Origin: Promethearchaeota archaeon
GTDB taxonomy: Archaea > Asgardarchaeota > Lokiarchaeia > Sigyniarchaeales > SOKP01
NCBI GenBank assembly: GCA_004524535.1
Contig: SDNY01000049.1
Coordinates: 1-25,131, forward strand
Length of the DNA: 25,131 nt
Direction of reading: 5' to 3'
A program made the translations under genes and the position numbers. This document shows, one piece after another, positions 16,011 through 25,131 of the stretch. Each line of letters opens with the position of its first letter. The first letter of the stretch is position 1. The notes below the pieces were generated by a model. It saw nothing but the letters and a program-made list of their open reading frames with translations. It was not told the origin of the DNA and searched no databases.

Positions 16011-16141
16011 TCAAGAATCAGGTTTTTATTATATACTTGTTTTTTAAAATCATATATCTTTAAAAATTTAAAAAGAGAATATCCTAACTATAATAATAAT
16101 TTATCCAATCTTTATGGATTTTAATATATTTAGTGATTTAA

Positions 16142-23056: not shown

Positions 23057-24526
23057 TTAGTTATTTTGCCTTTTCCTCCCATATTCATAAAGAGCCCGAA
23101 ATGATTTTGCCGCTCTGCGAAAACTAGGATATACTATAAAACCATTCTTTGTAAGTTTGTTATAATATTTTTTTCTCCTTCGCCCGGGATATTCTGGCAG
23201 AATTAAAATAAAAACTTTATTTAAGGATTCTGTAAGTTCTTTTATTTCCAATAAATTATTGTAATATCTTTTAAAATACCCTTCCTCTTCCAAGTCTTCC
23301 CACGCATCTGTTAATAACAATAAAAGATGAATATTTTCTTTAACCGCCACCTTTGAAATCTCTAAATAAGTTTGACTCGAAGATATCCATGGTAAATCTA
23401 AAGGATTGGAAAGGCTACCAATTTTTACCGGATATATTTTTCGTAATTTTTCTAATATCTCACCTTCGAAATATGGTACATTTAATCCTAATTCTGTTAA
23501 CGTATTTGTAGCAGTAATTCCAAAACCTCCTGACCAAAGAATCACCAGAACATTTTTCCCATCTGGATACTTAATTTCTTTTTTTGTACTTTTATTTCTA
23601 TTTATATAGTTATAAAAAAGATATGCATAATCTATCATATCATCAAGCGAAGTAGGAACTTCAATTATGGGTGTTTGTTCGTAAATGGCTTTCCAAATCT
23701 TTTGATTTGTACTAATTGAACCTGTGTGGGTTCTTGCTGCTACCTGTGCTCTTTCGGTCTTCCCTCCATTCATAAACAAAACTGGTTTTCTCATCCCTCT
23801 TAATGTATTTAATAGTTTTTTTCCCTCATTTTTATGGAGGGCGTTAATTCCTTCGAAATAAACTAAAACCAAATCAGTATCCTCATCTTGATTATAGTAT
23901 TCCAAAAAATCTGAAACTTGAAGGTCTACACAATTTCCGACACTAACTCCTTTTGAGAATCTTAAATCATGACGTATTGAACCAAGCCTAATCGTTTGGG
24001 AATGTAAATCCCCTGATTGGAAAACTAATGAGATGTTCCCGGGCTTTACGGGAAATAATGGTTCATAAGCTAAGTGTCCCTTAGTTGAATAGACTCCCAT
24101 ACAGTTTGGCCCTATTGCTCGAGTTTTATTCTCGTTTAATATTTTAAAGACTTCTTTCTCAATTTCAACGCCATCTTTATCAGATTCGCCCATTCCGGCT
24201 GTGAAGATGTGAATTGTCTTAATTACTTTTTGATGTAGCAGTTGTTTTAAACTATCCACTATCCTATGCCTTCCCACGGAAAGGATTAGAAGATCAATCG
24301 TGTCTTCCGGGACATCCTCCAAAGATTTATAACATTTTAAACCAAATAATTCATCTTTTGATTGGCTAATTAAATATAATTTGTTTTTATCATAATTTAG
24401 TTGAGTAAATCCCATCATAAAATACCACAATTTTTCGGATGCTTCAAAAATTGCAACATTTCGAGGCTTAAATAAGGCGTCTAATGAATCAGTAAGGTCT
24501 TCTAAAGTCATATATAACCCTCTCAA
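23057..24526 (-). CDS. ADP-forming acyl-CoA synthetase alpha-subunit-like (CoA-binding) protein
   Basis: LFKPRNVAI, IGPNCMG, QSG, VSVGNCVD, YFEG, phospho-His motif THTGS, SGG and NPLDL. The likely start is the ATG at 24511. Confidence 0.88.
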   Translation of the reverse strand: MRGLYMTLEDLTDSLDALFKPRNVAIFEASEKLWYFMMGFTQLNYDKNKLYLISQSKDELFGLKCYKSLEDVPEDTIDLLILSVGRHRIVDSLKQLLHQKVIKTIHIFTAGMGESDKDGVEIEKEVFKILNENKTRAIGPNCMGVYSTKGHLAYEPLFPVKPGNISLVFQSGDLHSQTIRLGSIRHDLRFSKGVSVGNCVDLQVSDFLEYYNQDEDTDLVLVYFEGINALHKNEGKKLLNTLRGMRKPVLFMNGGKTERAQVAARTHTGSISTNQKIWKAIYEQTPIIEVPTSLDDMIDYAYLFYNYINRNKSTKKEIKYPDGKNVLVILWSGGFGITATNTLTELGLNVPYFEGEILEKLRKIYPVKIGSLSNPLDLPWISSSQTYLEISKVAVKENIHLLLLLTDAWEDLEEEGYFKRYYNNLLEIKELTESLNKVFILILPEYPGRRRKKYYNKLTKNGFIVYPSFRRAAKSFRALYEYGRKRQNN

Positions 24527-24547
24527 AAAAATTAAAGAATAAGAGTA

Positions 24548-24883
24548 CTACATTAATTCAATTTCCACTAATACAGATTCCGGAATTTGAATTTTCATAA
24601 TAAGATGCATACTTTTTTCATCTGTGATAATCTCAAAAAGGCGTTTATGAATGCGCATCTCATATTTAACCTAAATCGCCTAAATGGCAATTTAATTTGC
24701 CCAGGTAGCTGTTCCTTGCCCAGATGGCGCTTTCAAAACGGGAACTCTGAGTCGCTTCGTCGGTAATGGTATTGGACCATATTTCTTAATACCAGTTTTT
24801 TTACAAACATTTTCGAGCTGTTCGCAAACGGACTTTAGAGCTTCCAATCTAGTCGATGATAATCGTATTCGTGCTTTCTGTAT
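24548..24883 (-). CDS. rpsJ: 30S ribosomal protein S10 (uS10), split by a 30-nt insertion; exons 24883-24696 and 24665-24548
   Basis: Manual translation: (M)QKARIRLSSTRLEALKSVCEQLENVCKKTGIKKYGPIPLPTKRLRVPVLKAPSGQGTATWA / KYEMRIHKRLFEIITDEKSMHLIMKIQIPESVLVEIELM*. It carries the archaeal uS10 motifs GPIPLPT and EMRIHKRL and is 101 aa after removing 30 nt. Absent from the ORF track. Confidence 0.93.
24666..24695 (-). other. candidate bulge-helix-bulge mRNA intron in rpsJ (30 nt)
   Basis: Insert UUAAAUUGCCAUUUAGGCGAUUUAGGUUAA contains in-frame UAA, UAG and UAG, and a 9-bp hairpin UAAAUUGCC/GGCGAUUUA. BHB spacing predicts exactly this 30-nt excision. Confidence 0.75.
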
Positions 24884-24890
24884 TTTTTAA

Positions 24891-24895
24891 TCACC
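24891..24895 (-). promoter_or_regulatory. Shine-Dalgarno GGTGA of rpsJ
   Basis: GGTGA-TTAAAAA-ATA-CAG: archaeal SD consensus 7 nt before the codon that aligns with the uS10 initiator Met. Confidence 0.65.
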
Positions 24896-24981
24896 ATTTA
24901 AAATTTTCTTAATTAATTAATGCTATTAACTAAATTAAATAAATTTTTGTATCTAATCATCAAAAAGGTATTTGAATAAAA

Positions 24982-25131
24982 TTAAGAAAATCCTAAAAGG
25001 AATTTATTGCCAAGATTTACATGGTCTAAATATTTCTGAGCAACCTCTAAACATTTCATCGCTTGTTTTCTTGGAGTGACCGGTAAATCTCTCATTTGAT
25101 AATCCCCATGAAATATCAATAGACTGTAGGG
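24982..25131 (-). CDS. C-terminal end of a probable radical SAM (PFL-activating-enzyme-like) protein, truncated by the window edge
   Basis: Manual translation PYSLLIFHGDYQMRDLPVTPRKQAMKCLEVAQKYLDHVNLGNKFLLGFS* resembles the C-terminus of archaeal PflA-like radical SAM proteins. Confidence 0.65.
   Translation of the reverse strand, partial: PYSLLIFHGDYQMRDLPVTPRKQAMKCLEVAQKYLDHVNLGNKFLLGFS

Follow-up and report, generated by a model that had tools for sequence, protein, structure and literature searches.

We analysed a stretch of 25,131 nucleotides (nt) from a Promethearchaeota archaeon (assembly GCA_004524535.1, contig SDNY01000049.1, positions 1 to 25,131; hereafter the window, listed as C135 in Table 1), in which the only gene for ribosomal protein uS10 is interrupted by extra bases that carry stop codons. 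The insert, exactly 30 nt at positions 24666–24695 of the minus strand, is very probably an archaeal bulge-helix-bulge (BHB) intron in the coding region of this gene, and would be removed from the RNA by the splicing endonuclease EndA. Comparison of the genome with its relatives further indicates that this microbe probably splices many of its mRNAs. The BHB reading of uS10 rests mainly on a family of inserts found in other protein genes of the same genome, beyond the local helix of uS10, which is weak. An initial annotation of the window, made without database searches, had proposed a BHB mRNA intron cut after the second nucleotide of both bulges, and this proposal is now supported by the family, by the restoration of reading frames, by covariation in the gene for the RNA polymerase subunit RpoA' and by the splicing enzymes of the genome.

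On the minus strand, the interrupted part of the gene reads ACC TGG GCA AAT TAA ATT GCC ATT TAG GCG ATT TAG GTT AAA TAT GAG ATG. Here, 33 nt separate the tryptophan codon (24703–24701) from AAA TAT GAG ATG, and TAA, TAG and TAG stand in frame between them. The coding region is split between an open reading frame (ORF) at 24692..24847 (51 residues, ending in ...GTATWAN) and another at 24548..24658 (36 residues, MRIHKRL...). When the insert is removed, the product is 101 residues long (...GTATWA + KYEMRIHKRL...) and is identical to the protein of a genome of the same genus, G008; both halves of the gene show this 100% protein identity despite many synonymous third-position differences in the DNA. 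The codon reading, the 33-nt gap, the three stops and the intact flanks described in the initial annotation were all confirmed, and the removal of 30 nt that it derived from the EndA rule, giving an in-frame ...GTATW-A-KYEMRIHKRL, produces exactly the G008 protein at the junction. Homology by itself leaves four equivalent or synonymous registers for the 30 nt to be removed: 24669–24698 gives GCT, and the three registers up to 24666–24695, the last of which is the interval proposed initially, give an identical GCA AAA junction. The genome is 99.1% complete with 4.4% contamination, consists of 198 contigs and has a G+C content of 30%. The Pfam S10 profile (PF00338) has one match in all of it, 315 nt long with two TAG and one TAA inside; uS10 is thus a single gene, and no uninterrupted rpsJ, which would have spoken against the intron reading, was detected elsewhere by this profile.

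We searched 40 genomes (this one and 39 relatives) with the Pfam S10 profile and obtained a match in 34. In all 33 matching relatives, including seven of the same genus, the match was 285 nt long and free of stops, and the six other relatives had no match to this profile. With the G008 protein as query, uS10 was not found in G001, G009, G018, G019 and G038, a result that says nothing on introns in those genomes. The gap between the two uS10 halves, as aligned with tblastn, was 3 or 6 nt in the loci of all 30 relatives aligned, compared with 33 nt here, and a DNA alignment with 11 relatives displayed one clean 30-nt gap. In a scan of one genome per species, 80 of 114 uS10 loci were kept, and all 80 were uninterrupted (residues 1–101 in 78 loci and 1–99 in two). 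These loci came mostly from metagenome-assembled genomes of Promethearchaeota/Promethearchaeia, and some from Thor-, Hod-, Hermod- or Odinarchaeota. The nearest relatives, mostly Promethearchaeota/Promethearchaeia, agree with the initial guess of a probable Asgard archaeon.

The insert is also present in a second assembly of DNA. Of the sampled words of this genome, 94% are contained in run X1, a DNA run from a sediment metagenome, which is probably the source sample. A contig produced from X1 by another assembler (1445 nt, depth 57) spans 24400–24824 with 0 differences and no gap, and that assembly showed no contig of this strain lacking the insert. This contig bridges the insert and gives it the DNA support on which the initial annotation had made its proposal depend; the support consists of contigs, probably from the same sample.

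The start of the gene deserves a separate observation. An in-frame TAA stands two codons before an ATA, and there is no ATG, GTG or TTG ahead of the conserved N-terminus. uS10 appears to begin at this ATA. Of the seven same-genus genomes aligned, six share it and one has ATG; among four genomes from other genera, ATA occurs once, and the codon is ATG, TTG or GTG in the other three.

The family of inserts was found by a census that used no structural motif. We took 2652 ORFs of at least 80 residues from a 1.773-Mb sample of G008, made up of 19 complete contigs plus 20 kb from the beginning of one more, and compared them with this genome using tblastn, which covered 458,162 aligned residues. The census yielded 14 inserts of 26–33 nt in 13 protein genes (Table 1; host families were assigned by Pfam), most often with a length of 30 nt, a 9-bp stem and a 5-nt loop. 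The members are alike in shape and length, not in sequence. Besides uS10, there are thus 13 further inserts in 12 genes; the initial annotation had suggested a scan for other conserved genes split by short hairpin inserts. For inserts with both exons long enough to be compared, the exon halves matched consecutive parts of a Pfam model (7–135 and 138–227 for CdhD, 2–81 and 85–190 for SBF, and 1–73 and 80–138 for UQ_con). Left out of the 14 were intergenic or start-region inserts (C135 16052–16128, C156 and C24), uncertain alignments (39 nt in C182, 63 nt in C16, 15 nt in C103, and those in C107 and C56) and differences of 7–8 nt. The first of these, at 16052–16128 of the window, is a 77-nt A+T-rich insert relative to G008, located outside conserved frames and just upstream of a GTGAT-ATG gene start.

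We also performed the reverse comparison, in which the 5634 ORFs of this genome were aligned with the G008 sample (474,179 aligned residues). One clear 30-nt intron was identified in G008 (L138:12035-12064, minus strand), with the exon–intron helix AUGG/CCAG and the loop UUUUC, in a gene that reads ...LGHG before and IWPHG... after the insert and is uninterrupted in this genome. Runs of 100 N accounted for other matches of this comparison. Over the same regions, the load is 14 introns here versus one clear case in G008. Scans based on structure alone were rejected as an intron count, because their 287, 2219 and, with a stricter signature, 48 hits are too many by chance at 30% G+C. Eight of the 48 strict-signature candidates were taken to Pfam: three were supported (Table 1), either by a Pfam match to each flank or by a domain match with a truncated start, one in C107 was a plain gene boundary, and four had no family on either side. 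By the comparison, these putative mini-introns interrupt at least 13 protein genes of this genome, and probably 16 in all, and about 30 introns would be expected genome-wide if the census rate held, a figure that is extrapolated and not counted.

All 14 inserts fit the same arrangement, in which a 4-bp helix is followed by a 3-nt bulge, a hairpin, 4 nt and a second 3-nt bulge. In uS10, for example, the fold comprises a 9-bp stem with a 5-nt loop, the bulges AAU and AAA, the central helix GGCA/GGUU and the outer pairs UG/UA; its length of 30 nt, its stem and loop and its bulges, AA^U and AA^A (with the caret at the predicted cut), constitute the signature of the family. The cut between the second and third bulge residues is stated for cbf5 (PMC2738675). 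Cuts after the second bulge base restore the G008 frame in 14/14 inserts, including six with lengths not divisible by 3. We scored 25 registers for each insert by the number of helix pairs plus that of inner-helix pairs, the latter capped at four, and the single best register was the frame-restoring one in 12 of the 14, among them inserts of 26, 29, 31, 32 and 33 nt; the product of the chance expectations is about 3e-15, as a rough figure. The exceptions were uS10, in which two registers tied, and the second RpoA' intron, which has a bulged base in its inner stem. Shifting a 30-nt removal window along the gene was discarded as a test, because any window covering the stops merges the frames and thus gives no discrimination.

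We then counted the pairs between the exon half (H) and the intron half (H') of the central helix. Across the 14 inserts, 52 of 56 positions were paired (39 of them Watson-Crick), a count that is somewhat inflated because the BHB score decided between equivalent placements of the register. When the intron halves were dealt among the genes, the mean was 24.8 and the maximum 42, and none of 100,000 permutations reached 52. Twelve introns of 30 nt were also stacked, namely eight census introns of this genome, three RpoA' orthologues and the G008 intron; the stack excluded the three candidates of the signature scan, whose selection had itself relied on pairing. In this stack, the H helix was paired at 44/48 positions, compared with 12–20/48 for slid partners, and 0/2000 shuffles reached 44; the inner stem was paired at 102/108. 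These pairs were counted on the ungapped stack since MAFFT misaligns unrelated intron sequences (two of 15 rows were shifted, and another alignment was scrambled). A predominates in the bulges: in the 3' bulge it is the first base in 14/14 inserts and the second in 12/14. In most members, the unconstrained minimum free energy (MFE) fold consists exactly of the helix, the 3-nt bulge and the hairpin; it does not in uS10, C180, C53 and the second RpoA' intron.

Introns at a shared site were observed in RpoA'. Using the Rpb1 domain-1 model, we found an interrupted RpoA' in six of 38 matching genomes: this genome, G006 of the same genus, and G021, G010, G020 and G023 of four other genera. All six belong to one family-level group, and no interruption was found among 15 matching genomes of three other families. 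Five of the six (this genome, G006, G021, G010 and G023) share the site between FGH and IEL, with insert lengths of 30, 30, 30, 30 and 40 nt, and G020 carries a 50-nt insert 4 nt downstream of this site. In 5/5 relatives, the H helix has 4/4 pairs in the register that restores HIELA. The helices are GGUC/GGCU, GGAC/GUCU, GGGC/GUCU, GGGC/GCCC and GGAC/GUCU; the third pair varies among U.G, A-U, G.U and G-C, and the stems differ in sequence and stay paired. Because the third pair covaries and the stems change yet pair, this is the pattern of selection on RNA structure. The compensating changes were seen in orthologous introns at the RpoA' site, and the uS10 intron has no orthologue. Intron sites are shared only patchily across genera.

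The layout of the uS10 insert is equal to that of the tRNA introns of the same genome. Reading by hand, we obtained two clear cases; the intron calls of ARAGORN are doubtful. tRNA-Pro contains a 28-nt intron at 37/38, with the helix UUUG (32–35)/CAAA and the bulges GG^A and AC^A. A second tRNA contains a 29-nt intron in the variable loop, with the helix CUGC/GCAG and the bulges AG^A and AA^G, and its removal leaves a normal AGGUC variable loop. Both follow the order H (4 nt), bulge (3 nt), hairpin, H' (4 nt) and bulge (3 nt), such that the intron consists of 1 base, the hairpin, 4 bases and 2 bases. The number of tRNA genes found ranged from 18 (Rfam tRNA model) to 22 (ARAGORN), several being about 100 nt long, and the tRNA genes of this genome are probably heavily interrupted.

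The enzymes for such splicing are encoded in the genome: we found two tRNA_int_endo (PF01974) paralogues, with open frames of about 200 aa each, in the regions C100 31106-31336 and C84 30615-30863, and one RtcB. According to PMC5829648, Asgard archaea possess an (alpha-beta)2 EndA with an L1 loop linked to a broad substrate range, and a relaxed BHB lacking a dependable outer helix needs two-subunit or epsilon-type enzymes; the subunit type and specificity loop of the EndA considered here are taken from that paper.

We propose that splicing of uS10 would proceed as follows. In the pre-mRNA, the 9-bp hairpin of the intron would form, and the intron bases GGUU after the hairpin would pair with the exon bases GGCA just upstream of it, which would leave two A-rich 3-nt bulges, AAU and AAA. 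A two-subunit EndA would cut after the second base of each bulge, and RtcB would join the exons. The mature mRNA would then encode the normal 101-residue uS10, and unspliced RNA would be read up to the TAA after ...TATWAN. From this arrangement, we infer cleavage by EndA, ligation by RtcB and splicing efficient enough to supply uS10. The further suggestion of the initial annotation, that the intron couples ribosome biogenesis to tRNA processing, found no support, since the host genes have many unrelated functions and nothing points to a ribosome-specific role.

Several observations weigh against the intron reading of uS10, in addition to the inflation of the H/H' count mentioned above. The central helix of uS10 is among the weakest of the 14 inserts (3/4 pairs, two of them G-U), and its outer helix has 2 bp. 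The initial annotation had cautioned that the BHB is weak and relaxed, and we recovered every stem, loop, bulge and pair of its fold as described. The 91-nt uS10 region folds no better than shuffled sequences (z = –1.06; 32 of 200 shuffles were as good). ViennaRNA forms the hairpin and not the central helix, either freely or with constraints permitting the helix; these constraints permit pairs and do not force them, and the constrained folds are not BHB energies. Of the 2080 perfect 9-bp/5-nt hairpins of the genome, 422 (20%) reach 3/4 or more helix pairs when placed in the BHB register, and in 71 (3.4% of all) two or more outer pairs can form as well; given these chance rates, the flanking pairs of uS10 alone are only weakly beyond chance. 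When no more than four inner-helix pairs are counted, the proposed register scores the same as one located 9 nt upstream, and when uncapped the proposed register has nine inner pairs versus four for its rival.

Further points of this kind concern the family and the relatives. The outer helix is paired at 24/48 positions in the 12-intron stack, a value that 152 of 2000 shuffles reach; it is not conserved in the family, and the UG/UA pairs noted initially for uS10 may therefore be due to chance. The mini-introns are thus of the relaxed BHB type without a dependable outer helix. The uS10 intron occurs in 0/33 relatives and 0/80 loci, so that the inserts at the same site for which the initial annotation had suggested a search were not encountered there and no covariation is available for the uS10 intron itself. 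Metagenome contigs were scanned with the exact intron and with a pattern of its flanks (21–51-nt gap), and neither was found. The only RNA run found, X24, holds a relative, about 89–91% alike, that reads on without the insert, and pieces from run X2 are likewise about 89–91% alike, with loose ends that continue without it. Because the X24 and X2 pieces belong to relatives, they are not spliced RNA of this organism and are silent on splicing here. Taken alone, the uS10 motif is modest and would have stayed a candidate.

We considered whether the insert is simply not removed, such that a recently inserted hairpin element would either disable uS10 or leave it expressed as two pieces (residues 1–64 and a 36-residue C-terminal restart at ATG 24658). 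Such an event would account for an insert unique to this genome with intact flanks, which any recent insertion leaves, as well as for its low complexity and short direct repeats, and there is an ATG 33 nt after the first stop. However, uS10 is single-copy in a 99%-complete genome and its interrupted form is the consensus at depth 57, and 13 like-built inserts lie inside conserved domains of RpoA', EF-2, CdhD and others. Six members of the family shift the frame, and expression in two pieces would not be tolerable there. The insert in RpoA' has been retained across genera, with changes that compensate each other, and the internal ATG of uS10, which lacks a Shine-Dalgarno-like sequence, is the same ATG that occurs in all orthologues. 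Retention of the insert is therefore very unlikely.

There is a comparably small chance that the insert is removed from the RNA by a route other than EndA and RtcB, such as another nuclease or ligase or a guide-dependent step. The relaxed BHB of uS10, with 3/4 pairs and no reliable outer helix, and the fact that recognition by EndA is a prediction would accommodate such a route, and the weak helix leaves room for poor or enzyme-assisted recognition. On the other hand, the frame-restoring cuts are exactly those of the EndA rule in 14/14 inserts, the layout equals that of the tRNA introns in this genome, and both EndA and RtcB are present.

Translational bypassing, in which ribosomes would take off ahead of the TAA, skip the hairpin and resume translation 30 nt further downstream, is harder still to credit. 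It would be in keeping with a stop that follows soon after the last conserved codon and with a stable hairpin in the gap, and could in principle handle gaps that are not multiples of three. Nevertheless, a matched pair of take-off and landing codons preserving the length of the protein is found in 0/14 inserts, and uS10 has none at all, as the initial annotation had correctly pointed out. Moreover, bypassing does not predict the fixed-distance pairing of four intron bases with four exon bases (52/56 and 44/48), nor A-rich 3-nt bulges, nor the likeness to the tRNA introns of the genome. An assembly or sequencing artefact, with the 30 nt absent from the DNA of the organism, is extremely improbable: although the assembly is fragmented (198 contigs) and its support comes from contigs of probably the same sample, a second assembler arrived at the identical sequence, at depth 57 and without any insert-free contig of the strain, the same kind of insert occurs at the RpoA' site of other genomes, and an artefact would not carry four bases complementary to the neighbouring exon.

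Other elements were considered for the insert and rejected. A group I or II self-splicing intron is excluded by length, 30 nt compared with a ribozyme core of hundreds of nucleotides. A repeated element resembling a miniature inverted-repeat transposable element is not indicated, as the 30-mer occurs once in the genome even with up to six substitutions allowed and the family shares shape and not sequence. Another genetic code does not apply, because TAG is the stop codon of uS10 itself and the ORFs nearby are normal, and a terminator was rejected because no T run follows the hairpin. A search of 24300–25131 against Rfam (E up to 1) gave no match to a known small RNA.

Table 1. Coordinates of the uS10 elements in the window, of the 14 inserts of the census and of three additional candidates (C, contig of this genome; C135, the window)
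Feature	Contig	Positions	Strand	Details
Shine-Dalgarno-like GGTGAT	C135	24890..24895	-	6 nt before uS10 start; in 8/12 aligned sequences, including all six that start with ATA
uS10 exon 1	C135	24696..24883	-	ATA 24883-24881; IQKARIRLSS...GTATWA and first two bases of Lys codon; protein identical to G008
Exon half (H) of central helix, GGCA	C135	24698..24701	-	pairs with GGUU 24668-24671: G-U, G-U, C-G, A.G (3/4)
5' bulge AAU	C135	24695..24697	-	predicted cut between 24696 and 24695 (rule from PMC2738675)
Putative 30-nt intron	C135	24666..24695	-	1 bulge base, 23-nt hairpin, 4-nt H' and 2 bulge bases; TAA, TAG, TAG in frame
Inner hairpin (h')	C135	24672..24694	-	9-bp stem UAAAUUGCC/GGCGAUUUA, loop AUUUA; in MFE and centroid folds; alone -8.9 kcal/mol
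Intron half (H') of central helix, GGUU	C135	24668..24671	-	partner of GGCA
3' bulge AAA	C135	24665..24667	-	predicted cut between 24666 and 24665
uS10 exon 2	C135	24548..24665	-	last base of Lys codon, YEMRIHKRL...IELM, stop TAG 24550-24548; protein identical to G008
Insert, Prismane/CODH family	C100	12004-12033	-	30 nt
Insert, CdhD	C8	3057-3086	-	30 nt
Insert, RpoA'	C17	309-338	-	30 nt
Insert, RpoA' (same gene, second insert)	C17	449-479	-	31 nt
Insert, EF-2	C129	9431-9460	-	30 nt
Insert, SCP2	C86	9543-9568	+	26 nt
Insert, ThiS/SAMP	C53	40052-40081	+	30 nt
Insert, SBF transporter	C103	13984-14016	-	33 nt
Insert, metallo-beta-lactamase fold	C180	253-282	-	30 nt
Insert, uS10	C135	24666-24695	-	30 nt
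Insert, PmbA/TldD	C115	18055-18084	+	30 nt
Insert, E2 ubiquitin-conjugating enzyme	C123	17016-17044	-	29 nt
Insert, DeoC aldolase	C16	3517-3548	+	32 nt
Insert, Elp3	C98	11116-11146	-	31 nt
Candidate intron, AMP-binding/ACS-like gene	C74	9870-9899		30 nt; signature scan and Pfam
Candidate intron, AMP-binding/ACS-like gene	C52	18534-18563		30 nt; signature scan and Pfam
Candidate intron, aldehyde:ferredoxin oxidoreductase	C144	21930-21959		30 nt; domain match begins at the first residue after the insert, at model position 33

Hairpin sites resembling the signature were also seen between two open frames and conserved in both genomes, for example at C37 43605-43634 and K14 51913-51942 of G008. Four similar pairs of conserved sites were noted (C7/K2, C38/K15, C65/K16 and C122/K8), and Pfam gave no family for the two pairs tried. 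These sites could be shared introns, which a census based on differences does not reveal, or conserved intergenic hairpins.

A wider reading is attractive, although we would give it slightly less than an even chance: that this Asgard lineage carries actively spreading BHB mini-introns of about 30 nt in its protein genes, an archaeal counterpart of the eukaryotic 'introners'. In that case, a lineage closely related to the ancestor of eukaryotes would routinely splice its mRNAs with the tRNA machinery. Each intron has four bases complementary to the exon just upstream, which suggests that insertion sites are chosen, or survive, by pairing. One conceivable route of gain, for instance, is that EndA and the ligase act in reverse and the product is then copied into DNA.

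Protein-coding RNA splicing by the tRNA endonuclease in archaea has so far been treated as a curiosity of cbf5 in Crenarchaeota. If the present readings are true, an Asgard archaeon depends on mRNA splicing for a dozen proteins in addition to uS10, EF-2 and the large subunit of RNA polymerase, and its introns have been gained quickly. The debates on intron origin would then have a living example of introns in coding genes among the archaeal relatives of eukaryotes, and it would have to be asked how a cell that has no nucleus keeps unspliced RNA from being translated. In addition, gene callers would report such genes as broken or split, which would affect estimates of completeness and of pseudogenes.

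Watanabe reportedly described the cbf5 pre-mRNA intron of Crenarchaeota in 2002. As described by Yokobori in 2009 (PMC2738675), that system resembles the present one in several respects: a BHB-like and often 'unconventional' motif interrupts protein-coding sequence, the in-frame junction arises from cutting between the second and third bulge residues, the EndA is hetero-oligomeric, and introns are gained and lost among relatives. It differs in that cbf5 is one gene in one phylum, whereas the introns proposed here affect at least 13 genes of a single Asgard genome, none of which was found to be cbf5. The hosts here include uS10, RpoA' and EF-2, and the introns form a uniform class of 26–33 nt. 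Splicing of cbf5 was demonstrated by cDNA, whereas here it is deduced from sequence.

The tRNA introns of Asgard archaea, as presented in a 2026 preprint, share the motif geometry and length range, repeated lineage-specific gains and a permissive (alpha-beta)2 EndA; according to the same preprint, gains at BHB sites occurred repeatedly and no route of arrival is known. In contrast to those introns, the hosts here are mRNAs, a term with 0 occurrences in the main text of that preprint, and our relatives are mostly Promethearchaeota/Promethearchaeia, whereas the focal families named there are Jordi-, Freyr- and Atabeyarchaeia. In HVO_1309 of Haloferax volcanii, EndA likewise cuts an mRNA at a BHB and the excised intron becomes a circle, but that intron is 46 nt long, lies in the 5' UTR and interrupts no reading frame (PMC7714728). 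The same paper, from 2020, states that besides the HVO_1309 intron only the cbf5 mRNA intron had been reported, and a 2025 paper on EndA structure cites, with regard to pre-mRNA, only three cbf5 papers. Our literature search, which did not extend to supplements, retrieved cbf5 as the only coding-region precedent and no report that places BHB introns in protein genes of Asgard archaea or in a gene for any ribosomal protein.

Two more distant systems are also comparable. In HAC1/XBP1, an mRNA is cut at stem-loops by Ire1, without the spliceosome, and joined by a tRNA-type ligase, in a regulated stress response of one mRNA. As proposed for the introns described here, a stem-loop cut in an mRNA changes the translated frame; unlike them, the nuclease is Ire1, and nothing here shows regulation. 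T4 gene 60 and the mitochondrial 'byp' elements contain short stop-containing hairpin inserts with intact flanks, and need matched take-off and landing codons. They resemble the present inserts in placing stop-containing hairpins within essential coding regions, and differ in their matched codons, which are absent here. We classify the uS10 insert as a BHB intron of a known kind in a new host gene and a new lineage, and the multi-gene family of mini-introns as a novel form within that kind.

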